In this document: one piece after another, positions 6,001 to 63,289 of the stretch
Numbering within the stretch: the stretch's first letter is position 1
How the letters are laid out: each line of letters begins with the position of its first letter
NCBI GenBank assembly: GCA_964016885.1
Contig: OZ024741.1
Coordinates: 17,484,001 to 17,548,000 of the forward strand
Length of the DNA: 64,000 nucleotides
Direction of reading: 5' to 3'
From: Eledone cirrhosa
Lineage: Eukaryota
The notes under the pieces: generated by a model
Told to the model about the DNA's origin: nothing
Databases searched by the model: none
The model's input: the letters and a program-made list of their open reading frames with translations, nothing else
Made by a program: the position numbers and the translations under genes

Positions 6001-9000
6001 CCACCCTAACATGGCGTCAGACCCTCTACCGATACTACCAATCCACCACCCTAGCATGGCATCAGACCCTCCACCGATACTGCCAATCCACCACCCTAAC
6101 ATGGCGTCCAACCCTCTACCTACACTGCCAATCCACCACCCTAACATGGCGTCAGACCCTCTACCGATACTGCCAATCTACCACCCTAACATGGCATCAG
6201 ACCCTCCACCGATACTACCAATCCACCACCCTAGCATGGCGTCCGACCTTCTACCGATACTGACAATCTACCACCCTAACATGGCATCAGACCCTCCACC
6301 GATACTACCAATCCACCACCCTAGCATGGCGTCCGACCTTCTACCGATACTGCCAATCCACCACCCTAACATGGCGTCAGACCCTCTACCGATACTGCCA
6401 ATCCACCACCCTAACATGGCATCAGACCCTCTACCGATACTGCCAATCCACCAACCTCACATGGCATCAGACCCTCCACCGATACTGCCAATCCACCACC
6501 CTAACATGGCACCAGACCCTCTACCGATACTGCCAATCCACCACCCTAACATGGCATCAGACCCTCCACCGATACTGCCAATCCACCACCCTAACATGGC
6601 ATCAGACCCTCTACCGATACTGCCAATCCACCAACCTAACATGGTATCAGACCCTCCACCGATACTGCCAATCCACCACCCTAACATGGCGTCCGACCCT
6701 CTACCGATACTACCAATCCGACGCCCTAACATGGCGTCAGACCCTCTACCGATACTGCCAATCCACCACCCTAACATGGCATCAGACCCTCTACCGATAC
6801 TGCCAATCCACCAACCTAACATGGTATCAGACCCTCTACCGATACTGACAATCCACCATCCTAACATGGCGTCAGACCCTCCACCGATACTGCCAATCCA
6901 CCACCCTAACATGGCATCAGACCCTTTACCGATACAACCAATCCAACACCCTAACATGGCGTCAGACCCTCCACCGATACTGCCAATCCACCACCCTAGC
7001 ATGGCGTCCAACCCTTTACCGATTCTGCCAATCCACCACCCTAACATGGCGTCCTACCCTCCACCGATACAACCAATCCACCACCCTAGCATGGCGTCCA
7101 ACCCTCTACCGATTCTGCCAATCCACCACCCTAACATGGCATCAGACCCTCTACCGATACTACCAATCCACCACCCTAACATGGCATCAGACCTTCTACC
7201 GATACTACCAATCCACCACCCTAACATGGCGTCCTACCCTCCACCGATACAACCAATCCACCACCCTAGCATGGCGTCCAACCCTCTACCGATTCTGCCA
7301 ATCCACCACCCTAACATGGCATCAGACCCTCTACCGATACTGCCAATCAACCACCCTAACATGGCGTCCGACCCTCTACCGATACTACCAATCCACTACC
7401 CTAACATGGCGTCCAACCCTCTACCTACACTGCCAATCCAGCACCCTAACATGGCGCCAGACCCTCTACCGATACTACCAATCCACCACCCTAACATGGC
7501 GTCCAACCCTCTACCTACACTGCCAATCCACCACGCTAACATGGCGTCAGACCCTCTACCGATACTGCCAATCTACCACCCTAACATGGCATCAGACCCT
7601 CCACCGATACTACCAATCCACCACCCTAACATGGCATCAGACCCTTTACCGATACAACCAATCCAACACCCTAACATGGCGTCAGACCCTCCACCGATAC
7701 TGCCACTCCACCACCCTAGCATGGCGTCAGACCCTCTGCCGATACTGCCAATCTACCACCCTAACGTGGCATCAGACCCTCCACCGATACTACCAAGCCA
7801 CCACCCTAGCATGGCGTCAGACCCTCTACCGATACTGACAATCCACCACCCTAACATGTTGTCCGACCCTCTACCGATACTGCCAATCCACCACCCTAAC
7901 ATGGTGTCCGACCCTCTACCGATACTACAAATCCACCACGCTAACATGGCATCCGACCCTCTACCGATACTACCAATCCACCACCCTAATATGGCGTCAG
8001 ACCCTCCACCGATACTGCCAATCCACCACCCTAACATGGCGTCAGACCCTCTACCGATACTACCAATCCACCACCCTAGCATGGCATCAGACCCTCCACC
8101 GATACTGCCAATCCACCACCCTAACATGGCGTCCAACCCTCTACCTACACTGCCAATCCACCACCCTAACATGGCGTCAGACCCTCTACCGATACTGCCA
8201 ATCTACCACCCTAACATGGCATCAGACCCTCCTCCGATACAACCAATCCACCACCCTAGCATGGCGTCCAACCCTCTACCGATTCTGCCAATCCACCACC
8301 CTAACATGGCGTCCTACACTCCACCGATACTACCAATCCACCACCCTAGCATGGCGTCAGACCCTCTACCGATACTGCCAATCTACCACCCTAACATGGC
8401 ATCAGACCCTCCACCGATACTACCAATCCACCACCCTAGCATGGCGTCAGACCCTCTACCGATACTGCCAATCCACCACCCTAACATGGTGTCCGACCCT
8501 CTACCGATACTACCAATCTACCACCCTAACATGGCATCAGACCCTCCACCGATACTACCAATCCACCACCCTAGCATGGTGTCCGACCTTCTACCGATAC
8601 TGCGAATCCACCACCCTAACATGGCGTCAGACCCTCTACCGATACTGCCAATCAACCACCCTAACATGGTGTCCGACCCTCTACCGATACTACCAATCCA
8701 CCACCCTAGCATTGCGTCTGACCCTCCACCGATACTGCCAATCCACCACCCTAGCATGGCGTCCGACCCTCTACCGATACTGTCAATCCACCACCCTAAC
8801 ATGGTGTCCGAACCTCTACCGATACTGCCAATCCACCACCCTAACATGGTGTCCGACCCTCTACCGATACTACAAATCCACCACGCTAACATGGCGTCCG
8901 ACCCTCTACCGATACTACCAATCTACCACCCTAATATGGCGTCAGACCCTCCACCGATACTGCCAATCCACCACCCTAACATGGCGTCAGACCCTCTACC

Positions 9001-12000
9001 GATACTACAAATCCACCACGCTAACATGGCGTCCGACCCTCTACCGATACTACCAATCCACCACCCTAATATGGCGTCAGACCCTCCACCGATACTGCCA
9101 ATCCACCACCCTAACATGGCCTCAGACCCTCTACCGATACTACCAATCCACCACCCTAGCATGGCATCAGACCCTCCACCGATACTGCCAATCCACCACC
9201 CTAACATGGCGTCCAACCCTCTACCTACACTGCCAATCCACCACCCTAACATGGCGTCAGACCCTCTACCGATACTACCAATCCACCACCCTAGTATGGC
9301 GTCCGACCTTCTACCGATACTGCCAATCCACCACCCTAACATGGCGTCAAACCCTCTACCGATACTGCCAATCCACCACCCTAACATGGCATCAGACCCT
9401 CTACCGATACTGCCAATCCACCAACCTCACATGGCATCAGACCCTCCACCGATACTGCCAATCCACCACCCTAACATGGCACCAGACCCTCCACCGATAC
9501 TGCCAATCCACCACCCTAACATGGCATCAGACCCTCTACCGATACTGTCAATCCACCAACCTAACATGGTATCAGACCCTCCACCGATACTGCCAATCCA
9601 CCACCCTAACATGGCGTCCGACCCTCTACCGATACTACCAATCCGACGCCCTAACATGGCGTCAGACCCTCTACCGATACTGCCAATCCACCACCCTAAC
9701 ATGGCATCAGACCCTCTACCGATACTGCCAATCCACCAACCTAACATGGTATCAGACCCTCTACCGATACTGACAATCCACCACCCTAACATGGCGTCAG
9801 ACCCTCCACCGATACTACCAATCCACCATCCTAACATGGCGTCAGACCCTCCACCGATACTGCCAATCCACCACCCTAACATGGCATCAGACCCTTTACC
9901 GATACAACCAATCCAACACCCTAACATGGCGTCAGACCCTCCACCGATACTGCCAATCCACCACCCTAGCATGGCGTCCAACCCTTTACCGATTCTGCCA
10001 ATCCACCACCCTAACATGGCGTCCTACCCTCCACCGATACAACCAATCCACCACCATAGCATGGCGTCCAACCCTCTACCGATTCTGCCAATCCACCACC
10101 CTAACATGGCATCAGACCCTCTACCGATACTACCAATCCACCACCCTAACATGGCATCAGACCCTCTACCGATACTACCAATCCACCACCCTAACATGGC
10201 GTCCTACCCTCCACCGATACAACCAATCCACCACCCTAGCATGGCGCCCAACCCTCTACCGATTCTGCCAATCCACCACCCTAACATGGCATCAGACCCT
10301 CTACCGATACTGCCAATCAACCACCCTAAGATGGCGTCCGACCCTCTACCGATACTACCAATCCACCACCCTAACATGGCGTCCAACCCTCTACCTACAC
10401 TGCCAATCCAGCACCCTAACATGGCGCCAGACCCTCTACCGATACTACCAATCCACCACCCTAACATGGCGTCCAACCCTCTACCTACACTGCCAATCCA
10501 CCACGCTAACATGGCGTCAGACCCTCTACCGATACTGCCAATCTACCACCCTAACATGGCATCAGACCCTCCACCGATACTACCAATCCACCACCCTAGC
10601 ATGGCGTCCGACCTTCTACCGATACTGCCAATCCACCACCCTAACATGGCGTCCAACCCTCTACCGATACTGCCAATCCACCACCCTAGCATGGCGTCCA
10701 ACCCTCTACCGATACTGCCAATCCACCACCCTAGCATGGCGTCCAACCCTCTACCGATACTGCCAATCCACCACCCTAGCATGGCGTCCAACCCTCTACC
10801 GATACTGCCAATCCACCACCCTAACATGGCGTCAGACCCTCCACCGATACTACCATTCCACCACCCTAACATGGCGTCAGACCCTCCACTGATACTACCA
10901 ATCCACCACCCTAGCATGGCGTCCAACCCTCCACCGATACGACCAATCCACCACCCTAACATGGCGTCAGACCCTCCACCGATACTGCCAATCCACCACC
11001 CTAGCATGGCGTCCAACCCTCTACCGATACTGCCAATCCACCACCCTAACATGGCATCAGACCCTTTACCGATACAACCAATCCAACACCCTAACATGGC
11101 GTCAGACCCTCCACCGATACTGCCAATCCACCACCCTAGCATGGCGTCCAACCCTTTACCGATTCTGCCAATCCACCACCCTAACATGGCGTCCTACCCT
11201 CCACCGATACAACCAATCCACCACCCTAGCATGGCGTCCAACCCTCTACCGATTCTGCCAATCCACCACCATAACATGGCGTCCTACACTCCTCCGATAC
11301 AACCAATCCACCACCCTAGCATGGCGTCCAACCCTCTACCGATTCTGCCAATCCACCACCCTAACATGGCGTCCTACACTCCACCGATACTACCAATCCA
11401 CCACCCTAGCATGGCGTCAGACCCTCTACCGATACTGCCAATCTACCACCCTAACATGGCATCAGACCCTCCACCGATACTACCAATCCACCACCCTAGC
11501 ATGGCGTCAGACCCTCTACCGATACTGCCAATCCACCACCCTAACATGGTGTCCGACCCTCTACCGATACTACCAATCCACCACCCTAACATGGTGTCCG
11601 ACCCTCTACCGATACTGCCAATCTACCACCCTAACATGGCATCAGACCCTCCACCGATACTACCAATCCACCACCCTAGCATGGCGTCCGACCCTCTACC
11701 GATACTACCAATCCACCACCCTAACATGGTGTCCGACCCTCCACCGATACTGCCAATCCACCACCCTAGCATGATGTCCGACCTTCTACCGATACTGCGA
11801 ATCCACCACCCTAACATGGCGTCAGACCCTCTACCGATACTGCCAATCAACCACCCTAACATGGTGTCCGACCCTCTACCGATACTACCAATCCACCACC
11901 CTAGCATGGCGTCCAACCCTCTACCGATACTACCAATCCACCACCATAACATGGCGTCCGACCCTCTACCGATACTGCCAATCCACCACCCTAACATGGC

Positions 12001-15000
12001 GTCCGACCCTCTACCGATACTGCCAATCCACCACCCTAGCATTGCGTCTGACCCTCCACCGATACTGCCAATCCACCACCCTAGCATGGCGTCCGACCCT
12101 CTACCGATACTGTCAATCCACCACCCTAGCATTGCGTCAGACCCTCCACCGATACTGCCAATCCACCACCCTAGCATGGCATCTGACCCTCTACTGATAC
12201 TGCCAATCCACCACCCTAACATGGCGTCAGACCCTCTACCGATACTGCCAATCCACCACCCTAGCATGGCGTCCGACCCTCTACCGATACTGCCAATCTA
12301 CCACCCTAACATGGCGTCAGACCCTCTACCGATACTGCCAATCCACCACCCTAGCATGGCGTCAGACCCTCCACCGATACTACCAATCCACCACCCTAGC
12401 CTGGCGTCCGACCCTCTACCGATACTGCCAATCCACCAGCCTAACATGGCGTCAGACCCTCCACCGATACTACCAATCCACCACCCTAGCCTGGCGTCCG
12501 ACCCTCTACCGATACTGCCAATCCACCACCCTAGCATGGCGTCAGACCCTCCACCGATACTACCAATCCACCACACTAGCATGGCTTTTGACCCTCCACC
12601 GATACTGCCAATCCACCACCCTAGCATGGCATCAGACCCTCTACCGATACTGCCAATCCACCACCCTAGCCTGGCGTCCGACCCTCTACCGATACTGCCA
12701 ATCCACCACCCTAGCCTGGCGTCCGACCCTCTACTGATACTGCCAATCCACCACCCTAACATGGCGTCAGACCCTCCACCGATACTACCAATCCACCACC
12801 CTAGCATGGCGTTTGACCCTCCACCGATACTGCCAATCCACCACCCTAGCATGGCATCAGACCCTCTACCGATACTGCCAATCCACCACCCTAACATGGC
12901 ATCAAACATCTACCGATACTACCAATCCACCACCCTAACATGGCGTCAGACCCTCCACCGATAGTGCTAATCCACCACCCTAACATGGCGTCAGACCCTC
13001 TACCGATACTGCCCATCCACCACCCTAACATGGCATCAGACCCTCTACCGATACTGCCAATCCACCACCCTAACATGGCGTCAGACCCTCTACCGATACT
13101 ACCAATCCACCACCCTAACATGGCGTCAGACCCTCCACCGATACTGCCAATCGACCACCCTAGCATGGCGTCAGACCCTCTACCGATACTGCCAATCCAC
13201 CACCCTAACATGGCGTCAGACCCTCCACCGATACTACCAATCCACCACCCTAACATGGCGTCAGACCCTCCACCGATACTACCAATCCACCACCCTAACA
13301 TGGCGTCAGACCCTCCACCGATACTGCAAATCCACCAACCTAACATGGCATCAGACCCTCCACCGATACTGCCAATCTACCACCCTAACATGGCGTTAGA
13401 CTCTCTACCGATACTGCCAATCCACCACGCTAACATGACGTCAGACCCTCTACCGATACTGCCAATCCACCACCCTAACATGGCATCAGACCCTCTACCG
13501 ATACTGCCAATCCACCACCCGAACATGGCGTCAGACCCTCTACCGATACTGCCAATCCACCACCCTAACATGGCGTCAGACCCTCTCCCGATACTGCCAA
13601 TCCACCACCCTAACATGGCATCAGACCCTCTACCGATACTGACAATCCACCACCCGAACATGGCGTCAGACCCTCTACCGATACTGCCAATCCACCACCC
13701 TAACATGGCGTCAGACCCTCTACCGATACTGCCAATCCACCACCCTAACATAGGATCAGACCCTCCACCGATACTGCCAATCCACCACTCTAACATGGCG
13801 TCAGACCCTCTACCGATACTGCCAATCCACCATCCTAACATGGCGTCAGACCCTCTAACGATACTGTCAATTAACCACCCTAGCATTGCGTCAGACCCTC
13901 CGCCGATACTGCCAATCCACCACCCTAACATGGCGTCAGACCCTCTACCGATACTGCCAATCCACCACCCTAGCATGGCGTCCGACCCTCTACCGATACT
14001 GCCAATCTACCACCCTAACATGGCGTCAGACCCTCTACCGATACTGCCAATCCACCACCCTAGCATGGTGTCCGACCCTCTACCGATACTGCCAATCCAC
14101 CACCCTAGCATGGCGTCCGACCCTCTACCGATACTGCCAATCCACCACCCTAACATGGCGTCAGACCCTCCACCGATACTACCAATCCACCACCCTAGCA
14201 TTGCGTCTGACCCTCCACCGATACTGCCAATCCACCACCCTAACATGGCGTCTGACCCTCCACCGATACTGCCAATCCACCACCCTAACATGGCGTCAGA
14301 TCCTCTACCGATACTGTCAATCCACCACCCTAGCATTGCGTCAGACCCTCCACCGATACTGCCAATCCACCACCCTAACATGGCGTCAGACCCTCTACCG
14401 ATACTTCCAATCCACCACCCTAGCATGGCGCCGACCCTCTACCGATACTGCCAATCTACCACCCTAACATGGCGTCAGACCCTCTACCGATACTGCCAAT
14501 CCACCACCCTAGCATGGCGTCCGACCCTCTACCGATACTGCCAATCCACCAACCTAGCATGGCGTCCGACCCTCTACCGATACTACCAATCCACCACCCT
14601 AACATGGCGTCAGACCCTCCACCGATACTACCAATCCACCACCCTAGCATGGCGTTTGACCCTCCACCGATACTGTCAATCCACCACCCTAGCATGGCGT
14701 CCGACCTTCTACCGATACTGCCAATCCACCACCCTAACATGGCGTCAGACCCTCCACCGATACTACCAATCCACCACCCTAGCATGGCGTTTGACCCTCC
14801 ACCGATACTGCCAATCCACCAGCCTAACATGGCATCAGACCCTCTACCGATACTGTCAATCCACCACCCTAGCATGGCGTCTGACCCTCCACCGATACTG
14901 CCTATCCACCACCCTAGCATGGCGTCAGACCCTCCACCGATACTGCCAATCCACCACCCTAGCATGGCGTCCAACCCTCTACCGATACTGCCAATCCACC

Positions 15001-18000
15001 ACCCTAACATGGCATCAGACCCTTTACCGATACAACCAATCCAACACCCTAACATGGCGTCAGACCCTCCACCGATACTGCCAATCCACCACCCTAGCAT
15101 GGCGTCCAACCCTTTACCGATTCTGCCAATCCACCACCCTAACATGGCGTCCTACCGTCCACCGATACAACCAATCCACCACCCTAGCATGGCGTCCAAC
15201 CCTCTACCGATTCTGCCAATCCACCACCATAACATGGCGTCCTACACTCCTCCGATACAACCAATGCACCACCCTAGCATGGCGTCCAACCCTCTACCGA
15301 TTCTGCCAATCCACCACCCTAACATGGCGTCCTACCCTCCACCGATACAACCAATCCACCACCCTAGCATGGCGTCCAACCCTCTACCGATTCTGCCAAT
15401 CCACCACCATAACATGGCGTCCTACACTCCTCCGATACAACCAATCCACCACCCTAGCATGGTGTCAGACCCTCCACCGATACTACCAATCCACCACCCT
15501 AACATGGCGTCAGACCCTCCACCGATACTACCAATCCACCACCCTAGCATTGCGTCTGACCCTCCACCGATACTGCCAATCCACCACCCTAACATGGCGT
15601 CTGACCCTCCACCGATACTGCCAATCCACCACCCTAACATGGCGTCAGATCCTCTACCGATACTGTCAATCCACCACCCTAGCATTGCGTCAGACCCTCC
15701 ACCGATACTACCAATCCACCACCCTAACATGGCGTCTGACCCTCCACCGATACTGCCAATCTACCACCCTAACATGGCGTCAGACCCTCTACCGATACTG
15801 CCAATCCACCACCCTAGCATGGCGTCCGACCCTCTACCGATACTGCCAATCCACCACCCTAGCATGGCGTCCGACCCTCTACCGATACTACCAATCCACC
15901 ACCCTAACATGGCGTCAGACCCTCCACCGATACTACCAATCCACCACCCTAGCATGGCGTTTGACCCTCCACCGATACTGTCAATCCACCACCCTAGCAT
16001 GGCGTCCGACCTTCTACCGATACTGCCAATCCACCACCCTAACATGGCGTCAGACCCTCCACCGATACTACCAATCCACCACCCTAGCATGGCGTTTGAC
16101 CCTCCACCGATACTGCCAATCCACCAGCCTAACATGGCATCAGACCCTCTACCGATACTGTCAATCCACCACCCTAGCATGGCGTCTGACCCTCCACCGA
16201 TACTGCCAATCCACCACCCTAGCATGGCGTCAGACCCTCCACCGATACTGCCAATCCACCACCCTAGCATGGCGTCCAACCCTCTACCGATACTGCCAAT
16301 CCACCACCCTAACATGGCATCAGACCCTTTACCGATACAACCAATCCAACACCCTAACATGGCGTCAGACCCTCCACCGATACTGCCAATCCACCACCCT
16401 AGCATGGCGTCCAACCCTTTACCGATTCTGCCAATCCACCACCCTAACATGGCGTCCTACCCTCCACCGATACAACCAATCCACCACCCTAGCATGGCGT
16501 CCAACCCTCTACCGATTCTGCCAATCCACCACCATAACATGGCGTCCTACACTCCTCCGATACAACCAATCCACCACCCTAGCATGGCGTCCAACCCTCT
16601 ACCGATTCTGCCAATCCACCACCCTAACATGGCGTCCTACACTCCACCGATACTACCAATCCACCACCCTAGCATGGCGTCAGACCCTCTACCGATACTG
16701 CCAATCTACCACCCTAACATGGCATCAGACCCTCCACCGATACTACCAATCCACCACCCTAGCATGGCGTCAGACCCTCTACCGATACTGCCAATCCACC
16801 ACCCTAACATGGTGTCCGACCCTCTACCGATACTACCAATCCACCACCCTAACATGGTGTCCGACCCTCTACCGATACTGCCAATCTACCACCCTAACAT
16901 GGCATCAGACCCTCCACCGATACTACCAATCCACCACCCTAGCATGGTGTCCGACCTTCTACCGATACTGCGAATCCACCACCCTAACATGGCGTCAGAC
17001 CCTCTACCGATACTGCCAATCAACCACCCTAACATGGTGTCCGACCCTCTACCGATACTACCAATCCACCACCCTAGCATGGCGTCCAACCCTCTACCGA
17101 TACTACCAATCCACCACCATAACATGGCGTCCGACCCTCTACCGATACTGCCAATCCACCACCCTAACATGGCGTCCGACCCTCTACCGATACTGCCAAT
17201 CCACCACCCTAGCATTGCGTCTGACCCTCCACCGATACTGCCAATCCACCACCCTAGCATGGCGTCCGACCCTCTACCGATACTGCCAATCCACCACCCT
17301 AACATGGTGTCCGACCCTCTACCGATACTACCAATCCACCACCCTAACATGGTGTCCGACCCTCTACCGATACTGCCAATCTACCACCCTAACATGGCAT
17401 CAGACCCTCCACCGATACTACCAATCCACCACCCTAGCATGGTGTCCGACCTTCTACCGATACTGCGAATCCACCACCCTAACATGGCGTCAGACCCTCT
17501 ACCGATACTGCCAATCAACCACCCTAACATGGTGTCCGACCCTCTACCGATACTACCAATCCACCACCCTAGCATGGCGTCCAACCCTCTACCGATACTA
17601 CCAATCCACCACCATAACATGGCGTCCGACCCTCTACCGATACTGCCAATCCACCACCCTAACATGGCGTCCGACCCTCTACCGATACTGCCAATCCACC
17701 ACCCTAGCATTGCGTCTGACCCTCCACCGATACTGCCAATCCACCACCCTAGCATGGCGTCCGACCCTCTACCGATACTGCCAATCCACCACCCTAACAT
17801 GGTGTCCGACCCTCTACCGATACTACAAATCCACCACGCTAACATGGCGTCCGACCCTCTACCGATACTACCAATCCACCACCCTAATATGGCGTCAGAC
17901 CCTCCACCGATACTGCCAATCCACCACCCTAACATGGCGTCAGACCCTCTACCGATACTACCAATCCACCACCCTAGCATGGCATCAGACCCTCCACCGA

Positions 18001-21000
18001 TACTGCCAATCCACCACCCTAACATGGCGTCCAACCCTCTACCTACACTGCCAATCCACCACCCTAACATGGCGTCAGACCCTCTACCGATACTGCCAAT
18101 CTACCACCCTAACATGGCATCAGACCCTCCACCGATACTACCAATCCACCACCCTAGCATGGCGTCCGACCTTCTACCGATACTGACAATCTACCACCCT
18201 AACATGGCATCAGACCCTCCACCGATACTACCAATCCACCACCCTAGCATGGCGTCCGACCTTCTACCGATACTGCCAATCCACCACCCTAACATGGCGT
18301 CAGACCCTCTACCGATACTGCCAATCCACCACCCTAACATGGCATCAGACCCTCTACCGATACTGCCAATCCACCAACCTCACATGGCATCAGACCCTCC
18401 ACCGATACTGCCAATCCACCACCCTAACATGGCACCAGACCCTCTACCGATACTGCCAATCCACCACCCTAACATGGCATCAGACCCTCCACCGATACTG
18501 CCAATCCACCACCCTAACATGGCATCAGACCCTCTACCGATACTGCCAATCCACCAACCTAACATGGTATCAGACCCTCCACCGATACTGCCAATCCACC
18601 ACCCTAACATGGCGTCCGACCCTCTACCGATACTACCAATCCGACGCCCTAACATGGCGTCAGACCCTCTACCGATACTGCCAATCCACCACCCTAACAT
18701 GGCATCAGACCCTCTACCGATACTGCCAATCCACCAACCTAACATGGTATCAGACCCTCTACCGATACTGACAATCCACCATCCTAACATGGCGTCAGAC
18801 CCTCCACCGATACTGCCAATCCACCACCCTAACATGGCATCAGACCCTTTACCGATACAACCAATCCAACACCCTAACATGGCGTCAGACCCTCCACCGA
18901 TACTGCCAATCCACCACCCTAGCATGGCGTCCAACCCTTTACCGATTCTGCCAATCCACCACCCTAACATGGCGTCCTACCCTCCACCGATACAACCAAT
19001 CCACCACCCTAGCATGGCGTCCAACCCTCTACCGATTCTGCCAATCCACCACCCTAACATGGCATCAGACCCTCTACCGATACTACCAATCCACCACCCT
19101 AACATGGCATCAGACCTTCTACCGATACTACCAATCCACCACCCTAACATGGCGTCCTACCCTCCACCGATACAACCAATCCACCACCCTAGCATGGCGT
19201 CCAACCCTCTACCGATTCTGCCAATCCACCACCCTAACATGGCATCAGACCCTCTACCGATACTGCCAATCAACCACCCTAACATGGCGTCCGACCCTCT
19301 ACCGATACTACCAATCCACTACCCTAACATGGCGTCCAACCCTCTACCTACACTGCCAATCCAGCACCCTAACATGGCGCCAGACCCTCTACCGATACTA
19401 CCAATCCACCACCCTAACATGGCGTCCAACCCTCTACCTACACTGCCAATCCACCACGCTAACATGGCGTCAGACCCTCTACCGATACTGCCAATCTACC
19501 ACCCTAACATGGCATCAGACCCTCCACCGATACTACCAATCCACCACCCTAGCATGGCGTCCGACCTTCTACCGATACTGCCAATCCACCACCCTAACAT
19601 GGCGTCCAATCCTTTACCGATACTGCCAATCCACCACCCTAGCATGGCGTCCAACCCTCTACCGATACTGCCAATCCACCACCCTAACATGGCGTCAGAC
19701 CCTCCACCGATACTACCATTCCACCACCCTAACATGGCGTCAGACCCTCCACTGATACTACCAATCCACCACCCTAGCATGGCGTCCAACCCTCCACCGA
19801 TACTACCAATCCACCACCCTAACATGGCGTCAGACCCTCCACCGATACTGCCAATCCACCACCCTAGCATGGCGTCCAACCCTCTACCGATACTGCTAAT
19901 CCACCACCCTAACATGGCATCAGACCCTTTACCGATACAACCAGTCAACACCCTAACATGGCGTCAGACCCTCCACCGATACTGCCAATCCACCACCCTA
20001 GCATGGCGTCCAACCCTTTACCGATTCTGCCAATCCACCACCCTAACATGGCGTCCTACCCTCCACCGATACAACCAATCCACCACCCTAGCATGGCGTC
20101 CAACCCTCTACCGATTCTGCCAATCCACCACCATAACATGGCGTCCTACACTCCTCCGATACAACCAATCCACCACCCTAGCATGGCGTCCAACCCTCTA
20201 CCGATTCTGCCAATCCACCACCCTAACATGGCGTCCTACACTCCACCGATACTACCAATCCACCACCCTAGCATGGCGTCAGACCCTCTACCGATACTGC
20301 CAATCTACCACCCTAACATGGCATCAGACCCTCCACCGATACTACCAATCCACCACCCTAGCATGGCGTCAGACCCTCTACCGATACTGCCAATCCACCA
20401 CCCTAACATGGTGTCCGACCCTCTACCGATACTACCAATCCACCACCCTAACATGGTGTCCGACCCTCTACCGATACTGCCAATCTACCACCCTAACATG
20501 ACATCAGACCCTCCACCGATACTACCAATCCACCACCCTAGCATGGTGTCCGACCTTCTACCGATACTGCGAATCCACCACCCTAACATGGCGTCAGACC
20601 CTCTACCGATACTGCCAATCAACCACCCTAACATGGTGTCCGACCCTCTACCGATACTACCAATCCACCACCATAACATGGCGTCCGACCCTCTACCGAT
20701 ACTGCCAATCCACCACCCTAACATGGCGTCCGACCCTCTACCGATACTGCCAATCCACCACCCTAGCATTGCGTCTGACCCTCCACCGATACTGCCAATC
20801 CACCACCCTAGCATGGCGTCCGACCCTCTACCGATACTGTCAATCCACCACCCTAGCATTGCGTCAGACCCTCCACCGATACTGCCAATCCACCACCCTA
20901 AAATGGCGTCAGACCCTCTACCGATACTGTCAATCCACCACCCTAGCATTGCGTCAGACCCTCCACCGATACTGCCAATCCACCACCCTAGCATGGCGTC

Positions 21001-24000
21001 CGACCCTCTACCGATACTGTCAATCCACCACCCTAGCATTGCTTCAGACCCTCCACCGATACTGCCAATCCACCACCCTAGCATGGCATCTGACCCTCTA
21101 CTGATACTGCCAATCCACCACCCTAACATGGCGTCAGACCCTCTACCGATACTGCCAATCCACCACCCTAGCATGGCGTCCGACCCTCTACCGATACTGC
21201 CAATCCACCACCCTAACATGGCGTCAGACCCTCCACCGATACTGCCAATCCACCACCCTAAAATGGCGTCAGACCCTCTACCGATACTGCCAATCCACCA
21301 CCCTAGCATGGCGTCCGACCCTCTACCGATACTGCCAATCCACCACCCTAGCATGGCGTCCGACCCTCTACCGATACTGCCAATCTACCACCCTAACATG
21401 GCGTCAGACCCTCTACCGATACTGCCAATCCACCACCCTAGCATGGCGTCAGACCCTCTACCGATACTACCAATCCACCACCCTAACATGGCGTCAGACC
21501 CTCCACCGATACTACCAATCCACCACCCTAGCCTGGCGTCCGACTCTCTACCGATACTGCCAATCCACCACCCTAACATGGCGTCCGACCCTCCACCGAT
21601 ACTACCAATCCACCACCCTAGCCTGGCGTCAGACCCTCCACCGATACTACCAATCCACCACCCTAGCCTGGCGTCAGACCCTCTACCGATACTGCCAATC
21701 CACCACCCTAACATGGCGTCAGACCCTCCACCGATACTACCAATCTACCACCCTAGCATGGCGTTTGACCCTCCACCGATACTGCCAATCCACCACCCTA
21801 GCATGGCATCAGACCCTCTACCGATACTGCCAATCCACCACCCTAACATGGCATCAAACCTCTACCGATACTACCAATCCACCACGCTAACATGGCGTCA
21901 GACCCTCCACCGATACTGCTAATCCACCACCCTAACATGGCGTCAGACCCTCTACCGATACTGCCCATCCACCACCCTAACATGGCATCAGACCCTCTAC
22001 CGATACTGCCAATCCACCACCCTAACATGGCGTCAGACCCTCTACCGATACTACCAATCCACCACCCTAACATGGCGTCAGACCCTCCACCGATACTGCC
22101 AATCGACCACCCTAGCATGGCGTCAGACCCTCTACCGATACTGCCAATCCACCACCCTAACATGGCGTCAGACCCCCCACCGATACTACCAATCCACCAC
22201 CCTAACATGGCGTCAGACCCTCCACCGATACTACCAATCCACCACCCTAACATGGCGTCAGACCCTCCACCGATACTGCAAATCCACCAACCTAACATGG
22301 CATCAGACCCTCCACCGATACTGCCCATCCACCACCCTAACATGGCATCAGACCCTCTACCGATACTGCCAATCCACCACCCTAACATGGCATCAGACCC
22401 TCTACCGATACTGCCAATCCACCACGCTAACATGACGTCAGACCCTCTACCGATACTGCCAATCCACCACCCTAACATGGCATCAGACCCTCTACCGATA
22501 CTGCCAATCCACCACCCGAACATGGCGTCAGACCCTCTACCGATACTGCCAATCCACCACCCTAACATGGCGTCAGACCCTCTACCGATACTGCCAATCC
22601 ACCACCCTAACATGGAATCAGACCCTCTACCGATACTGACAATCCACCACCCGAACATGGCGTCAGACCCTCTACCGATACTGCCAATCCACCACCCTAA
22701 CATAGGATCAGACCCTCCACCGATACTGCCAATCCACCACTCTAACATGGCGTCAGACCCTCTACCGATACTGCCAATCCACCATCCTAACATGGCGTCA
22801 GACCCTCTAACGATACTGTCAATTCACCACCCTAGCATTGCGTCAGACCCTCCGCCGATACTGCCAATCCACCACCCTAACATGGCGTCAGACCCTCTAC
22901 CGATACTGCCAATCCACCACCCTAGCATGGCGTCCGACCCTCTACCGATACTGCCAATCTACCACCCTAACATGGCGTCAGACCCTCTACCGATACTGCC
23001 AATCCACCACCCTAGCATGGCGTCCGACCCTCTACCGATACTACCAATCCACCACCCTAACATGGCGTCAGACCCTCTACCGATACTGCCAATCCACCAC
23101 CCTAGCATGGCGTCCGACCCTCTACCGATACTGCCAATCCACCACCCTAACATGGCGTCAGAACCTCCACCGATACTACCAATCCACCACCCTAGCATGG
23201 CGTTTGACCCTCCACCGATACTGCCAATCCACCACCCTAGCATGGCATCAGACCCTCTACCGATACTGCCAATCCACCACCCTAACATGGCGTCAGACCC
23301 TCTACCGACACTGCCAATCCCCCGCCCTAACATGGCGTCAGACCCTCTACCGATACTGCCAATCCACCACCCTAACATGGCGTCAGACCCTCCACCGATA
23401 CTGCTAATCCACCACCCTAACATGGCGTCAGACCCTCCACCGATACTGCCAATCCACCACCCTAACATGGCGTCAGACCCTCTACCGATACTGCCCATCC
23501 ACCACCTAACATGGCATCAGACCCTCTACCGATACTGCCAATCCACCACCCTAACAAGGCGTCAGACCCTCTACCGATACTACCAATCCACCACCCTAGC
23601 ATGGCGTCCGACCTTCTACCGATACTGCCAATCCACCATCCTAACATGGCATTAGACCCTCTACCGATACTACCAATCCACCACCCTAGCATCGCGTCCA
23701 ACCCTCTACCGATACTGCCAATCAACCACCCTAACATGGCGTCCGACCCTCTACCGATACTACCAATCCACCACCCTAGCATCGCGTCCAACCCTCTACC
23801 GATACTACCAATCCACCACCCTAACATGGCGTCAGACCCTCCACCGATACTACCAATCCACCACCCTAGCATGGTGTCCGACCTTCTACCGATACTGCGA
23901 ATCCACCACCCTAACATGGCGTCAGACCCTCTACCGATACTGCCAATCAACCACCCTAACATGGTGTCCGACCCTCTACCGATACTACCAATCCACCACC

Positions 24001-27000
24001 CTAGCATGGCGTCCAACCCTCTACCGATACTACCAATCCACCACCATAACATGGCGTCAGACCCTCTACCGATACTGCCAATCCACCACCCTAACATGGC
24101 GTCCGACCCTCTATCGATACTGCCAATCCACCACCCTAGCATGGTGTCAGACCCTCCACCGATACTACCAATCCACCACCCTAACATGGCGTCAGACCCT
24201 CCACCGATACTACCAATCCACCACCCTAGCATTGCGTCTGACCCTCCACCGATACTGCCAATCCACCACCCTAACATGGCGTCTGACCCTCCACCGATAC
24301 TGCCAATCCACCACCCTAACATGGCGTCAGATCCTCTACCGATACTGTCAATCCACCACCCTAGCATTGCGTCAGACCCTCCACCGATACTGCCAATCCA
24401 CCACCCTAACATGGCGTCAGACCCTCTACCGATACTTCCAATCCACCACCCTAGCATGGCGTCCGACCCTCTACCGATACTGCCAATCCACCACCCTAGC
24501 ATGGCGTCCGACCCTCTACCGATACTACCAATCCACCACCCTAACATGGCGTCAGACCCTCCACCGATACTACCAATCCACCACCCTAGCATGGCGTTTG
24601 ACCCTCCACCGATACTGTCAATCCACCACCCTAGCATGGCGTCCGACCTTCTACCGATACTGCCAATCCACCACCCTAACATGGCGTCAGACCCTCCACC
24701 GATACTACCACTCCACCACCCTAGCATGGCGTTTGACACACCACCGATACTGCCAATCCACCAGCCTAACATGGCATCAGACCCTCTACCGATACTGCCA
24801 ATCCACCACCCTAACATGGTGTCAGACCCTCTACCGATTCTACCAATCCACCACCCTAACATGGCGTCAGACCCTCTACCGATACTACCAATCCACCACC
24901 CTAGCATGGCGTCTGACCCTCCACCGATACTGCCAATCCACCACCCTAACATGGCGTCAGACCCTCTACCGATACTACCAATCCACCACCCTAACATGGC
25001 GTCAGACCCTCTACCGGTACTACCAATCCACCACCCTAGCATGGCGTCAGACCCTCTACCGATACTGCCAATCCACCACCCTAACATGGCGTCTGACCCT
25101 CTACCGATACTACCAATCCACCACCCTAGCATGGCGTCCAACCCTCTACTGATACTGCCAATCAACCACCCTAACATGGCGTCCGACACTCTACCGATAC
25201 TACCAATCCACCACCCTAACATGGCGTCCAACCCTCTACCGATACTACCAATCCACCACCCTAGCATGGCGTCCAACCCTCTACCGATACTACCAATCCA
25301 CCACCCTAACATGGCGTCCGACCCTCTACCGATACTGCCAATCCACCACCCTAACAGGGCGTCAGACCCTCTACCGATACTGCCAATCCAGCACCCTAAC
25401 ATGGCGTCAGACCCTTTACCGATACTGCCAATCCACCACCCTAACATGGCGTTAGACCCTCCACCGATACTGCCAATCCACCACCCTAGCATGGTGTCAG
25501 ACCCTCTACCGATACTACCAATCCACTACCCTAACATGGCGTCAGACCCTCCACCGATACTGCCAATCCACCACCCTAGCATGGCGTCAGACCCTCTACC
25601 GATACTGCCAATCCACCACCCTAACATGGCGTCCGACCTCTACCTACACTGCCAATCCACCACCCTAGCATGGCGTCAGACCCTCTACCGATACTGCCAA
25701 TCCACCACCCTAGCATGGCGTCAGACCCTATACCGATACTGCCAATCCACCACCCTAGCATGGCGTCAGACCCTCTACCGATACTGCCAGTCCACCATCC
25801 TAGCATGGCGTCAGACCCTCTACCGATACTGCCAATCCACCACCCTAACATGGTGTCCGACCTCTACCTACACTGCCAATCCACCACCCTAGCATGGCGT
25901 CAGACCCTCTACCGTTACTGCCAATCCACCACCCTAGCATGGCGTCAGACCCTCTACCGATACTGCCAATCGACCAACCTAACATGGCGTCAGACCCTCT
26001 ACCGATACTGCCAATCCACCACCCTAGCATGGCATCAGACCCTCTACCGATACTGCCAATCCACCACCCTAGCATGGCGTCAGACCCTCTACCGATACTG
26101 CCAATCCACCACCCTAACATGGCGTCAGACCCTCTACCGATACTGCCAATCCACCACCCTAACATGGCGTCAGACCCTCTACCGATACTGCCAATCCACC
26201 CCCCTAACATGGCGTCAGACCCTCTACCGATACTGCCAATCCACCACCCTAACATGGCGTCAGACCCTCTACCGATACTGCCAATCCACCACCCTAACAT
26301 GGCGTCAGACCCTCTACCGATACTGCCAATCCACCACCCTAACATGGCGTCAGACCCTCTACCGATACTGCCAATCCACCACCCTAACATGGCGTCAGAC
26401 CCTCTACCGATACTGCCAATCCACCACCCTAACATGGCGTCAGACCCTCTACCGATACTGCCAATCCACCACCCTAACATGGCGTCAGACCCTCCACCGA
26501 TACTGCCAATCAACCACCCTAACATGGCGTCAGACCCTCTACCGATACTGCCAATCCACCACCCTAGCATGGCGTCAGACCCTCTATCGATACTGCCAAT
26601 CCACCACCCTAACATGGCGTCAGACCCTCTACCGATACTGCCAATCCACCACCCTAACATGGCGTCAGACCCTCTACCGATACTGCCAATCCACCACCCT
26701 AACATGGCGTCAGACCCTCCACCGATACTGCCAATCCACCACCCTAGCATGGCGTCAGACCCTCTACCGATACTGCCAATCCACCACCCTAGCATGGCGT
26801 CAGACCCTCTACCGATACTACCAATCCACCACCCTAACATGGCGTCAGACCCTCTACCGATACTGCCAATCCACCACCCTAACATGGCGTCAGACCCTCT
26901 ACCGATACTACCAATCCACCACCCTAGCATGGCGTCTGACCCTCCACCGATACTGCCAATCCACCACCCTAACATGGCGTCAGACCCTCTACCGATACTA

Positions 27001-30000
27001 CCAATCCACCACCCTAGCATGGCGTCTGACCCTCCACCGATACTGCCAATCCACCACCCTAGCATGGCGTCAGACCCTCTACCGATACTACCAATCCACC
27101 ACCCTAACATGGCGTCAGACCCTCTACCGATACTGCCAATCCACCACCCTAACATGGCGTCAGACCCTCTACCGATACTGCCAATCCACCACCCTAACAT
27201 GGCGTCAGACCCTCTACCGATACTACCAATCCACCACCCTAACATGGCGTCAGACCCTCTACCGATACTGCCAATCCACCACCCTAACATGGCGTCAGAC
27301 CCTCTACCGATACTGCCAATCCACCACCCTAGCATGGCGTCAGACCCTCTACCGATACTACCAATCCACCACCCTAACATGGCGTCAGACCCTCCACCGA
27401 TACTGCCAATCCACCACCCTAGCATGGCGTCAGACCCTCTACCGATACTACCAATCCACCACCCTAACATGGCGTCTGACCCTCCACCGATACTGCCAAT
27501 CCACCACCCTAACATGGCGTCAGACCCTCTACCTATACTACCAATCCACCACCCTAGCATGGCGTCTGACCCTCCACCGATACTGCCAATCCACCACCCT
27601 AGCATGGCGTCAGACCCTCTACCGATACTGTCAATCCACCACCCTAGCATGGCGTCAGACCCTCTACCGATACTGCCAATCCACCACCCTAGCATGGCGT
27701 CAGACCCTCTACCGATACTGCCAATCCACCACCCTAACATGGCGTCAGACCCTCTACCGATACAACCAATCCACCACCCTAGCATGGCGTCTGACCCTCC
27801 ACCGATACTGCCAATCCACCACCCTAGCATGGCGTCAGACCCTCTACCGATACTGCCAATCCACCACCCTAACATGGCCTCAGACCCTCCACCGATACTA
27901 CCAATCCGCCACCCTAGCATGGCGTCAGACCCTCTACCGATACTGCCAATCCACCACCCTAGCATGGCGTCAGACCCTCTACCGATACTGCCAATCCACC
28001 ACCCTAGCATGGCGTCAGACCCTCTACCAATACTGCCAATCCACCACCCTAACATGGCGTCAGACCCTCCACCGATACTGCCAATCCACCACCCTAGCAT
28101 GGCGTCTGACCCTCCACCGATACTGCCAATCCACCACCCTAGCATGGCGTCAGACCCTCTACCAATACTGCCAATCCACCACCCTAACATGGCGTCAGAC
28201 CCTCCACCGATACTACCAATCCGCCACCCTAGCATGGCGTCAGACCCTCTACCGATACTACCAATCCACCACCCTAACATGGCGTCTGACCCTCCACCGA
28301 TACTGCAAATCCACCACCTTAACATGGCGTCAGACCCTCTACCGATACTGCAAATCCACCACCCTAACATGGCGTCAGACCCTCCACCGATACTACCAAT
28401 CCGCCACCCTAGCATGGCGTCAGACCCTCTACCGATACTACCAATCCACCACCCTAACATGGCGTCTGACCCTCCACCGATACTGCCAATCCACCACCCT
28501 AACATGGCGTCAGACCCTCTACCGATACTGCAAATCCACCACCCTAACATCGCGTCGGACCCTCCACCGATACTGCCAATCCACCACCCTAGCATGGCGT
28601 CAGACCCTCTACCGATACTGCCAATCCACCACCCTAGCATGGCGTCAGACCCTCCACCGATACTGCCAATCCACCACCCTAGCATGGCGTCTGACCCTCC
28701 ACCGATACTGCCAATCCACCACCCTAGCATGGTGTCCGACCCTCTACCGATACTGCCAATCCACCACCCTAGCATAGCGTCAGACCCTCTACCGATACTG
28801 CCAATCCACCACCCTAACATGGCGTCAGACCCTCCACCGATACTGCCAATCCACCACCCTAGCATGGCGTCTGACCCTCCACCGATACTGCCAATCCACC
28901 ACCCTAGCATGGCGTCTGACCCTCCACCGATACTGCCAATCCACCACCCTAACATGGCATCAGACCCTCTACCAATACTGCCAATCCACCACCCTAGCAT
29001 GGCGTCAGACCCTCCACCGATACTGCCAATCCACCACCCTAGCATGGCGTCTGACCCTCCACCGATACTGCCAATCCACCACCCTAACATGGCATCAGAC
29101 CCTCTACCAATACTGCCAATCCACCACCCTAGCATGGCGTCAGACCCTCTACCGATACTGCCAATCCACCGCCCTAGCATGGTGTCAGACCCTCTACCGA
29201 TACTGCCAGTCCACCACCCTAGCATGGTGTCAGACCCTCTACCGATACTGCCAATCCACCACCCTAGCATGGTGTCAGACCCTCTACCGATACTGCCAAT
29301 CCACCGCCCTAGCATGGTGTCAGACCCTCTACCGATACTGCCAATCCACCACCCTAACATGGCATCAGACCCTCTACCAATACTGCCAATCCACCACCCT
29401 AGCATGGCGTCAGACCCTCCACCGATACTGCCAATCCACCACCCTAGCATGGCGTCTGACCCTCCACCGATACTGCCAATCCACCACCCTAACATGGCAT
29501 CAGACCCTCTACCAATACTGCCAATCCACCACCCTAGCATGGCGTCAGACCCTCTACCGATACTGCCAATCCACCGCCCTAGCATGGTGTCAGACCCTCT
29601 ACCGATACTGCCAGTCCACCACCCTAGCATGGTGTCAGACCCTCTACCGATACTGCCAATCCACCACCCTAGCATGGTGTCAGACCCTCTACCGATACTG
29701 CCAATCCACCGCCCTAGCATGGTGTCAGACCCTCTACCGATACTGCCAGTCCACCACCCTAACATGGCATCAGACCCTCTACCAATACTGCCAATCCACC
29801 ACCCTAGCATGGCGTCAGACCCTCTACCGATACTGCCAATCCACCACCCTAACATGGCGTCAGACCCTCTACCGATACTACCAATCCACCACCCTAACAT
29901 GGCGTCAGACCCTCTACCGATACTGCCAATCCACCACCCTAACATGGCGTCAGACCCTCCACCGATACTACCAATCCACCACCCTAACATGGCGTCAGAC

Positions 30001-30068
30001 CCTCCACCGATACTACCAATCCACCACCCTAACATGGCGTCAGACCCTCCACCGATACTGCCAATCCA
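1..30068 (-). repeat. 45-bp satellite array (~668 monomers, open at the left window edge); monomer = 5' head of the local tRNA-derived SINE
   Basis: + strand consensus CCACCACCCTA(A/G)CATGGCGTC(A/C)GACCCTC(T/C)ACCGATACT(G/A)CCAAT repeats without interruption to ...CCAATCCA at 30068. Its reverse complement matches the first ~44 nt of the SINE copies at 46520, 57682-57868 and 62145. Confidence 0.98.
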
Positions 30069-45576: not shown

Positions 45577-47036
45577 TGCAAACTCGTGTTCGAGCATTGC
45601 CATTGCCTGATAAAATGCTCAAAAATGTGAGGCACGAATGTGGGTCTTTAAACCAGCCAAAGACTTACACACTCTTACATGGCAACTGTAGGCTCCCCTG
45701 AGACCTTCCATTGCTTTGTTCTGGCTGTGGGTTCTCGTGTGTCTTTTAAGACCTCCCATGATTGCACATTCCTTGCCACATTCCTTACATCTCAGATCAT
45801 AATCTACATGAGGTCCACTGATATGTTCGTGTCTAATCAAACCAGCTTTACTCAGCCAGACTCGACCACAGTGCTGGCAAACCAGATGATGTTCAACAGC
45901 AGACAGTTCAGAACAGTCTCAATCCTCACCTTCCTTTTCAGTGTTAGGTGTTCTCTTCGACGAGTTTCAAAGTGTTCACTTCCTGACTTGATCAATCGTC
46001 TCCACTTCACACGCTCGTCAGCCATTTTCTCCCATTCGTCAGATGAAATTCCAGCACAAGCCAAGGTGCCTCTGATACAGTCCCGGTACCGCCTTTTTGG
46101 TTTATGTGGTGGTCGCCTTCCTTCACACAGTTCTCCATAGAGACGTTGCTTTGGAATACGATATCAGACATCCGGACCACGTGACCGCACCACCTCAACC
46201 GATACCGAAAGATTATGCTCTCTATAGTCACGCACATGCTCCGTTCTAGAACTTCCAAATCACTGACGAACATTTTCCATCGCACCCCAAGTAACTTATG
46301 AAGAGATTGTTGATAAAATCTCTCCAGATCCTTGGGGAGCTTTCTGTATGTGACCCACGTTTCACAAACATAAAGCAAAGAGGAGACGACACAAGTCAGA
46401 TACACTTTCACCTTGGTTTCGATAGTGATACCTCGTCTGGACCATAAACGTTGATGCAGCCGTCCAAATACATCACTGGCTTTCTTGATTCTTAAGGATA
46501 CTTCATTATCATGTGTGCAGGGCGGTGGATTGGCAGTATTGGTAGAGGGTCGGACGCCATGCTTTGACTCATAGAGTTACGGCCCTTGCCATTCTGAGTT
46601 CAAATCCCGCCGAGGTTAACTTTGCCTTTCATCCTTACGGGGTCGATAAAATAAAGGACCAGTAATACACTGGGTAATTGCTGGCCTTGTGCCAAAAGTA
46701 GAAACAATTATCATGTGTGCATGAATTGTTCAACGTACTACCAAGGTAAAGAAACTTGTCAGCAACGTTTAGCCTCTTTCCGTACACGTACACACTTGGT
46801 GCAGTGTACTCGTTTCCAGGTGCTGGCTGATACATCACAACAGTCTTTTCCAAGCTTATTGTGACGCCCAAATCGCTGCAAGCTGCAGAAAATGAGTTCA
46901 TAATATGCTGCATGTCACTTTGTGAGTGTGCAAAAAGATCGCAGTCGTCTGCATACAAAAACTCTCGGCTTGTAGATGTTAATACATTTGTGCTTGCACC
47001 AAAGCGCCTGATGTTGAACAACCCTCCTGAAGTGCG
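45569..47036 (-). mobile_element. 5'-truncated, frameshifted RTE-clade LINE (RT C-terminal half plus C2H2 zinc fingers)
   Basis: FLYADDCDL, ISLEKTVVM, KFLYLGSTL, LLYVCETW, RLRWCGHVVRM and CKECGKEC...LKRHTRTH; 3' end GAGTTTGCAGCCATCAT-(AT)n; interrupted by a SINE. Confidence 0.9.
46520..46706 (+). mobile_element. tRNA-derived SINE (short 3' variant), full length, inserted in the RTE RT
   Basis: Perfect 15-bp TSD ATTATCATGTGTGCA (46505-46519, 46707-46721); A box TGGCAGTATTGG, B box GAGTTCAAATCCC. Confidence 0.95.
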
Positions 47037-50398: not shown

Positions 50399-50443
50399 AA
50401 GAGAGAGAGAGATAGAAAGATATATAGATAGGGAAAATAATAA

Positions 50444-50588
50444 TTGTTTCTACTTTTGGCACAAGGCCAGCAATTACCCAGTGCATTACTGGTACTTTAT
50501 TTTATCGACCCCCTAAGGAAGACACGCAAAGTTAACCTCGGCGGAATTTGAACCCAGACCGTAAAGGGGCGTAACTCTACGCTGCAAA
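50444..50588 (-). mobile_element. tRNA-derived SINE lacking the 45-bp head (5'-truncated)
   Basis: Body and tail present; homology stops at ...GCTGCAAA, where the head would begin. AAAATAATAA is duplicated at 50434-50443 and 50587-50596. Confidence 0.85.
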
Positions 50589-50834
50589 AATAATAACGAT
50601 TTGAAGATGCCCCTAATACTTGTATATAGAGATGTAAATTCATGTTACACAATGAAAAGTAATTGGTATAAAATAAATTATAGTCTTTTTTAAATAGGTT
50701 TGTAGAAATATTTGTGGTTATCTAATTAAGTTTCACCATGAGTAGCTTCACAAACTTGCCTTGTCATTCGTGTTTTGGTGTTTTATATATATATATATAT
50801 ATAAATATAAATACAGATAGATAAATATATAGAT

Positions 50835-57681: not shown

Positions 57682-57936
57682 AATAATTGTTTCTACTTAA
57701 GGCACAAGGCCAGCAATTATCCAGTGCATTACCGGTACTTTATTTTATCGACCCCGTAAGGATGAAAGGCAAAGTCAACCTCGGCAGGATTTGAACTCAG
57801 ATCGTAAAGGGACGTAACTATGCTGCAAAGCATGGCGTCCGACCCTCTACCGATACTGCCAATCCACCAAATAATTGTTTCTACTTTTGGCACAAGGCCA
57901 GCAATTACCCAGTGTATTACTGGTACTTTATTTTAT
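57682..57936 (-). mobile_element. Head-to-tail SINE dimer: full copy (57682-57868) plus 3' fragment (57870-57936)
   Basis: The head ...GCATGGCGTCCGACCCTCTACCGATACTGCCAATCCACC runs directly into a second tail AATAATTGTTTCTACTTTTGGCACAAGG...TACTTTATTTTAT. Confidence 0.88.
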
Positions 57937-61400: not shown

Positions 61401-61518
61401 GCCCCACGAGTTGGAGTGGCTTTTCCAGCGCGTCTCCCTTGCCGTCCCCCGGGAAAACGCCTTCTCCATTCTGTCCGCCGGGGCTGTGGGTGGGCCCCAT
61501 CGCGTACCATTACATTAG
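58462..61518 (+). mobile_element. Decayed CRE-clade non-LTR retrotransposon ORF (PHD finger, RT, CCHC, restriction-like endonuclease)
   Basis: RT motifs LRKKEGGIRPIALGNVFRRLAAK, QLGVG..GGCE, KLDMRNAFNS, GVQQGDPLGPLL and WYLDD. C-terminal C.C...D.FGLHPLSC...RH, KRSDG...LVWDATC.DT and K..KY..L...PLAVETSG. TAA at 59107-59109 and at least 2 frameshifts. Confidence 0.88.
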
Positions 61519-61872: not shown

Positions 61873-62144
61873 TCTCTCTCTCCTCAAAAGAAAGGTTATA
61901 GTGGAGAGAGAGGTGCTGCACCTCAGTAAATTCGCTGAAAAGTGGGTGAATGTGGCGAAAATGGCCCGAGTGAATGGGCCTTCTCTGTATATAAACCTGT
62001 AGGTTGAGGAAGATAAACAGAGGGTGTTGAGGGTTGTTCTATCCACGGGGTGTAAAACAACCCCGCAGTAACATTCCCCCCCTATTGGGGATTTCGATTG
62101 TTTTATTTTTTATATAGTTTTTTGTTATTCATTATTGTTAAAGA

Positions 62145-62826
62145 GGGCGGTGGATTGGCAGTATCGGTAGAGGGTCGGACGCCATGTTAGGGTGGTGGAT
62201 TGGCAGTATCGGTAGAGGGTCGCACGCCATGTTAGGGTGGTGGATTGGCAGTATCGGTAGAGGGTCTGACGCCATGCTAGGGTGGTGGATTGGCAGTATC
62301 GGTAGAGGGTCTGACGCCATGCTAGGGTGGTGGATTGGCAGTATCGGTAGAGGGTCGGACGCCATGTTAGGGTGGTGGATTGGCAGTATCGGTAGAGGGT
62401 CTGACGCCATGCTAGGGTGGTGGATTGGCAGTATCGGTAGAGGGTCGGACGCCATGTTAGGGTGGTGGATTGGCAGTATCGGTAGAGGGTCTGACGCCAT
62501 GCTAGGGTGGTGGATTGGCAGTATCGGTAGAGGGTCGGACGCCATGCTAGGGTGGTGGATTGGCAGTATCGGTAGAGGGTCTGACGCCATGCTAGGGTGG
62601 TGGATTGGCAGTATCGGTAGAGGGTCTGACGCTATGTTAGGGTGGTGGATTGGCAGTATCGGTAGAGGGTCTGACACCATGCTTTGCAGCAAAGAGTTAC
62701 GCCCATTTATGGTTTGAGTTCAAATCCCGCCGAGGTTAACTTTGCCTTTCATCCTTACGGGGTCGATAAAATAAAGTACCAGTAATACACTGGATAATTG
62801 CTGGCCTTGTGGCAAAAGTAGAAACA
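62145..62826 (+). mobile_element. SINE with 12 tandem 45-bp heads followed by one body
   Basis: Heads start every 45 bp from 62145 to 62640. The 12th continues GCTTTGCAGC...GAGTTCAAATCCC...GTAGAAACA. 14-bp TSD ATTATTGTTAAAGA at 62131-62144 and 62827-62840. Confidence 0.95.
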
Positions 62827-63289
62827 ATTATTGTTAAAGATTTTATGTAAAACCCCCGCCGTCACGTCTTGTAATGTCCCATTTTTGTACTCCCCTGTGG
62901 CAAATAAAGAAAGATATCTATCTATCTGTCTATCTATCTATCGATCTATAGATCTATATGCGTCTCTACTTTTTCCTCCTTCTCGCCTTTCTCTGTGTTT
63001 TTACCTCACCTCTTCTCTTTCTGTGTTTTTCACCCATCTCTCCCCTTCGCCCTGTTTTACTACTCTTTCACCTCCTGCATCTCTCTCTCACCCCGTGTTT
63101 CTACCTATCAATCTCACTCTCTCTCTCTCTATTCCCACCCATCTCTCTCTCTCTCTCTTTCTATATCCCCCCCCTCTCTATGTTATCACCCTCTTAACCA
63201 ATTGCCCACTTCACCTCTCAAGTTAGAAGTTAGAAACCTCGTTCAGGTCACTAACTGCAATTTCTGTTATGGATTACCTGTGTGTGTGT

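Follow-up and report, generated by a model that had tools for sequence, protein, structure and literature searches.

A SINE with twelve tandem heads in Eledone cirrhosa, and a head-to-head junction that may spread among inserted SINE copies

The stretch analysed here, called the window, comprises 64,000 nucleotides (C2:17484001-17548000) of a 3.0-Gb assembly. On its plus strand, a 14-bp target site duplication (TSD), ATTATTGTTAAAGA, was found by a search of the 64-kb window at 62131..62144 (left copy) and 62827..62840 (right copy) only, and between the two copies lie 12 heads of a SINE, in an exact 45-bp period from 62145, followed by one SINE body. Head 1 (62145..62189) has the ordinary start GGGCGG, that is, C at unit position 4 (C4; bases are named in this way below), together with G33 and T43. 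Heads 2-11 (62190..62639) are 45-bp units with T4 and a mixture of G or T at site 33 and C or T at site 43, each ending in a common junction, and head 12 (62640..62684) is continuous with the body as in single-headed copies; all of heads 2-12 start with GGGTGG. The body (62685..62826) has a B-box-like motif at 62717-62728, a conserved central domain at 62742-62772 and a short tail. An earlier note on this DNA had described the perfect 14-bp TSD around heads and body, the contrast between GGGCGG in head 1 and GGGTGG in heads 2-12, and the single body with B box, central domain and tail, all of which were borne out. It had also spoken of 12 exact 45-bp repeats, which is right for the period but not for the units, as the heads comprise seven distinct sequences. 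The four combinations that it reported for two dimorphic sites were likewise recovered, sites 33 and 43 reading GT in four heads, TC in six, GC in one and TT in one.

The insertion interrupts a dispersed repeat, of which the left portion occupies 61884..62130 and the right portion 62841..62949 (both plus strand, delimited by comparison with paralogues). A first look for this host repeat (61884-62949) returned 2,154 candidates, the best matches being 82-88% identical. The target site was empty in all five of the paralogues fetched; three of them join exactly over one TSD-like target copy, and two have 4 additional bases there. Because these paralogues are empty, the TSD is a true mark of insertion, and what lies here is a SINE insertion of the ordinary kind, flanked by a TSD, with its head now in 12 tandem copies. 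In its body, it shares 98% identity with single-headed members of the subfamily.

The SINE belongs to a dispersed, high-copy, TSD-flanked family. Exact matches to the head end plus body start, counted genome-wide for the two main body starts, numbered 43,429 and 30,807, giving at least 74,236 head-plus-body copies. Five single-headed copies lie in the window: one at 46520..46720 (plus strand), used for comparison, has a 15-bp TSD, and four have heads near 36702 (minus), 37111 (plus), 44662 (minus) and 57866 (minus). A headless, 5'-truncated copy was seen at 50440-50590 (minus). Whole-SINE head-to-tail tandems were common (L028, L058, L075, L111, L164, L200, L243 and window position 57742). The head unit is the first 45 bases of the SINE and carries an A-box-like motif only, the B-box-like motif being in the body; the A-box-like motif has T where the consensus has A. 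ARAGORN and Rfam gave no tRNA or Rfam match for the SINE. The MetaSINE superfamily and octopus SINEs have a 66-bp Meta domain after a tRNA head, and the element here presumably resembles octopus SINEs and their Meta domain. Upstream of the 12-headed locus, a broken retroelement coding region in three frames covers 58462-61518 (plus); it contains a Pfam RVT_1 match (E 7e-9) within 59357-60055 and is possibly a LINE.

A second array of the same head fills window positions 1..30068 on the minus strand. It had been described as a 30-kb array, a figure that neighbouring stretches correct: the window holds only its 5' third, and the whole runs from C2:17514068 to 17428070 (minus), 86 kb and about 1,912 units, and has a normal SINE body as its terminus beyond the window. 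At this array, no clear TSD is left. Internally, the part at 1-30068 repeats itself over a long range, with lags of 263 and 265 units (about 12 kb), and not as a short higher-order repeat. Elsewhere, arrays with 238, 368 and 369 heads likewise end in a body, and so do all nine found within 4 Mb of the start of C1. These nine (L077-L088), of 8 to 369 heads, stand within 2.6 Mb at C1:1.3-3.9 Mb and share local variants including G43, T15, T21 and 44-bp units. Array lengths of this order exceed what a SINE RNA could insert. Since arrays of 17-86 kb lie between SINE termini and are too long for SINE RNA, growth in place after insertion is secure, resting on array length and established SINE biology.

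Multi-headed loci were counted with a pattern joining the junction, the last head and the body start, which, with up to 3 mismatches allowed, matched at least 379 loci; this lower bound is about 0.5% of the family, and an overlapping variant pattern gave 236. Copies of the kind that the earlier note proposed to look for beyond its own locus thus exist in number, with 2 to about 1,912 heads per multi-headed locus. Sample loci were picked by near-consensus patterns requiring the 45-bp junction; 111 were read in detail (2 to 41 or more heads), then 20 more. Among the 111, 23 were two-headed and 11 three-headed, and 1,101 of 1,124 internal units were 45 bp long, so that one junction register prevails. 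Exact junction 22-mers numbered 13,416 genome-wide (control, 0). After 10 of the 111 loci were left out as running off the fetched stretch or having other junctions, 56 of the 101 complete multi-headed copies had their own TSD of at least 10 bp, compared with 45 of 92 single-headed copies. Two loci, L163 and L234, have merely a partial upstream head. Head duplications with units of 29 or 41 bp, joined differently, were short and rare (L009:775-880, L018, L192), a rarity that rests on searches aimed at the 45-bp junction. At L104, the 3' part of the multi-headed copy contains a tandem duplication, situated beyond the central domain.

The genome-wide comparison proposed in the earlier note was to test whether multi-headed copies have TSDs, share the junction and form one body subfamily; TSDs and junction were found, the single body subfamily was not. 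Multi-headed bodies fall in ten crude body classes. In a poorly resolved tree of 98 multi-headed and 106 single-headed bodies (204 rows), the multi/single label required 44 changes, 10 of them forced by well-supported branches; shuffled labels averaged 61, so the label is more clustered than chance, partly through sampling. Two two-headed loci 1.8 Mb apart share a rare body variant but differ in junction alleles, and the subfamily with that variant has 355 copies, of which none of 30 sampled was multi-headed (26 had single heads and four had broken heads without the junction). Among 22 pairs of copies sharing rare body variants, only two paired multi-headed with multi-headed. Position also sets the two kinds of copy apart. 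On the four large chromosomes C1-C4, and at a scale of tens of Mb, the median distance to the chromosome end was 19 Mb for 39 multi-headed loci and 103 Mb for 89 control heads (p 9e-12). When 30 consecutive heads on C1 were examined without regard to the junction, multi-headedness was limited to the two nearest the chromosome end. All seven two-headed loci on C1-C4 lay at most 84 Mb from an end, whereas 50 of the 89 controls lay more than 90 Mb away. The behaviour of multi-headed copies is not that of a mobile subfamily, nor was an array found to be inherited and spread with a body subfamily, as in an array-carrying retrotransposon. The proposal that multi-headed SINEs retrotranspose as a unit is therefore unsupported, given polyphyletic bodies, no multi-headed copy among the 30 subfamily members and a distal bias lacking in single heads.

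Exchange between arrays was examined in 84 arrays, with CpG transitions, T33 and T43 excluded and L202 (frame shift) left out. Pairs less than 1 Mb apart (41 pairs) shared 0.39 rare variants per pair and pairs across chromosomes 0.037, roughly a tenfold difference, and none of 2,000 size-stratified shuffles reached 0.39; without the C1 tip cluster the values were 0.33 and 0.026. Bodies of neighbouring arrays were no more alike than those of random pairs (0.73 and 0.79; two loci without a body in view were left out of this body and head comparison), and their insertion sites differ. Segmental duplication of neighbours was rejected on these two grounds; 11 partial flank matches occurred in 5 of 39 near pairs. 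The sharing fits proximity-dependent conversion confined to heads. It bears on exchange among arrays and not on the seeding step.

The 12-headed locus and the 86-kb array, 32 kb apart, have in common T4 as well as the two alternative bases at each of sites 33 and 43, in agreement with the earlier remark that the same two sites vary in the large array, and three unit types of the 12-mer are present there exactly. These likenesses would suit a block copied whole from the neighbouring array, which we nevertheless regard as very improbable and, for this donor, largely refuted. The best 10-head match of the 12-mer within the 86 kb has 12 mismatches, exact matches are limited to two-head blocks, T15 and G25 are both absent from only 35% of 1,882 in-frame array units yet from all 12 heads, and the commonest site 33/43 haplotypes are TT and GC in the array but TC and GT in the 12-mer. 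The earlier suggestion that dispersed heads pick up satellite blocks by gene conversion or template switching is thus supported as to gene conversion, which gives the best fit, and fails as to a block from this neighbour. Thirteen loci mix G33 and T33 heads; in the 12-mer, the mixture over a body of the T33 subfamily suggests at least one outside template. The different head 1 needs just one imported junction and then local expansion, an expansion that is certain for the long arrays.

Bases next to the junction bear on whether it was made at each locus or imported. Genome-wide, 425 of 3,954 perfect heads (10.7%) had T4, as did 5 of the 49 first heads scored. Last heads were scored in otherwise perfect multi-headed copies of one body class, where a 64-letter pattern found 21 with T and 17 with C (p 2e-11), and a like-for-like 62-letter pattern found 21 with T and at least 21 with C, about half either way. 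Two-headed members of that class had T4 in 5 of 11 last heads (p 0.004). With C4 in most first heads and T4 in excess in last heads, head 1 has the look of the recipient's original, and the bases that follow the junction that of an import. Of 11 private last-head variants in 29 two-headed loci, four were also present in head 1; since one donor-copying event would be expected to leave none, local homogenisation or cis duplication is needed as well. Head 1 was G33 in all 29, although T33 dominates many long arrays, so that long T33-rich arrays are not the usual donors; these would be short multi-headed SINEs, matched via the body. No site was encountered with a one-head and a many-head allele, and no second haplotype turned up for the window flank or for L008.

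Two other accounts of the seeding step were weighed. In one of them, the head of each locus would be duplicated on the spot, independently of other loci, at a structural hot spot in regions of high recombination, with T4 and T43 as mutational by-products and exchange coming later. Private variants common to the heads of one locus, homogeneous arrays with locus-specific variants (L005, L007, L009) and the distal bias, which is equally compatible with it, all speak for this account. We nonetheless think it unlikely. No direct repeat bounds the 45-bp unit and none was found inside the SINE at the unit ends; the flanking direct repeats of 5-10 bp from which a minisatellite would start under the Haber-Louis model were absent. 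Flank microhomology was rejected as a cause of the junction, the flank being equal to the junction triplet in only 2 of 49 loci, and this, together with the common junction, makes independent local slippage unlikely, as the earlier note had argued. A junction hairpin was rejected as a DNA-level cause, four natural two-unit stretches folding no better than simple base shuffles (z -0.8 to 1.3); as RNA, a two-head stretch folded well (z -2.9). Other junction types were rare, with 29-bp and 41-bp units at the three loci named above, in searches aimed at the 45-bp junction, and nothing in this account explains why T is in fivefold excess at a single CpG.

Alternatively, the junction could enter at insertion, either because multi-headed masters retrotranspose or because reverse transcriptase switches to array or short-head RNA, with local growth after. 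The unit starts exactly at the usual SINE 5' end and the TSDs enclose all heads; two- and three-headed copies are many; the partial upstream heads at L163 and L234 are such as a 5'-truncated multi-head RNA would leave; and the variants shared within two-headed copies are compatible with a common RNA template. On this account, however, multi-headed copies should be distributed like single heads, which the seven distally placed two-headed loci are not. No body subfamily is multi-headed as a rule, copies linked by rare body variants are seldom both multi-headed, and the ordinary C4 of first heads often gives way to T4 in internal ones. We give entry at insertion the same low probability as the hot spot. 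That the assembly is at fault, or that a few loci were segmentally duplicated, is hardly credible: the exact head number of the 12-mer could be mis-assembled, but hundreds of loci have distinct TSDs, bodies and private variants, paralogous sites are empty, and the heads are non-identical.

The best reading, to which we incline with some confidence, is that the junction is seeded by ectopic gene conversion and that local expansion follows. For the 12-headed locus itself, it is rather probable that the SINE inserted single-headed, gained the junction by ectopic gene conversion from a multi-headed copy and grew by out-of-register exchange. A break in the head would be repaired on another multi-headed SINE, through homology in the body and last head, and repair synthesis would pass the donor's junction and then re-anneal to the recipient's own head. 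The recipient retains its own TSD, 5' start and body, and would acquire the junction and linked variants. Once two heads were present, unequal exchange and conversion could alter their number and homogenise the middle heads, and adjacent arrays, which share variants, would go on trading them. Multi-headed loci are concentrated distally on the chromosomes, where recombination is presumably higher, and the process would be concentrated there too. The original head-to-head junction could have been made once by a deletion in a whole-SINE dimer. We consider the chances evenly balanced that the junction is contagious in the full sense, a single head-to-head join that originated on one or a few occasions and spreads by homology-directed repair through more than 74,000 SINE copies.

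SINE-derived satellites are already known from squamates and from Alu, and the element described here is not a new class. Units of Alu minisatellites reportedly include roughly the first 44 Alu bases. The squamate satellites sSat1-3 are tandem repeats of part of a tRNA-SINE, with a few to more than 1,000 units (PMC10702118), and they agree with the present system in having one dominant unit at many loci, a terminal unit that runs into the SINE end, a subtelomeric bias and alternating sub-variants. Here, the unit is a part of the SINE shorter than the SINE, with 10 middle monomers where an sSat requires at least four; the last head leads on to the SINE terminus in the 86-kb array, in the nine C1-tip arrays and in the 12-mer; one unit dominates over many loci (1,101 of 1,124, in searches aimed at this junction); and the bias to chromosome ends is that given above for C1-C4. 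The systems differ, by description, in SINE family and animal group, in unit length (45 bp here, 67-290 in sSat1-3) and in the SINE region used, and both SINE termini and the TSD are usually kept here, an uncommon variant among sSat (PMC10702118). The available text of PMC10702118 holds no test of the route by which one unit reaches many loci, whereas here transfer from one inserted copy to another is indicated by bodies, positions and junction-linked variants. The multi-headed system works like the squamate satellites, with a seeding step that is unusually open to testing.

Alu-derived minisatellites are also built from SINE parts (Jurka and Gentles 2006, via PMC3389668, PMC6947457 and PMC9659126), but are reported to start from short flanking direct repeats (PMC3389668, PMC6947457), and none flank the 45-bp unit here. 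According to PMC3389668, known initiation models account for only 6% of the tandem repeats that stem from transposable elements, most of which are single-locus. Elements that move with an internal tandem array include SVA/LAVA with their VNTR (PMC4432496) and Helitrons with central repeats (PMC10048060); like these, the present SINE has a variable tandem array in a mobile element dispersed genome-wide, but SVA/LAVA and Helitrons travel with the array, while here the array tracks neither body subfamily nor family distribution. The molluscan case compared, PcH-Sat of the limpet Patella, is a 179-bp pericentromeric satellite derived from Nin-SINE and likewise traced to a SINE segment; the available portion of that report mentions no intact SINE frame or length series (PMC11121367), and both are present here. 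A literature search, with subscription papers mostly outside its scope, returned no account of head arrays of this SINE, nor of a junction passing between SINE copies.

By what route one tandem repeat comes to occupy hundreds of unlinked sites, and what produces its initial duplication, is a general open question. In this genome each array keeps a record of its birth in its TSD, first head and body subfamily, the full range from 2 to about 1,900 units is present, and junction-linked variants mark lineages, so that the way in which a satellite arises and spreads can be put to the test at individual loci, by asking whether, in different haplotypes, the same TSD encloses one head or many. If the junction is indeed contagious, inserted elements become growing arrays without transposition of arrays, and neighbourhood lineages can be read from the linked variants. 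Transfer of a junction after insertion would let dispersed SINEs become satellite DNA in situ.
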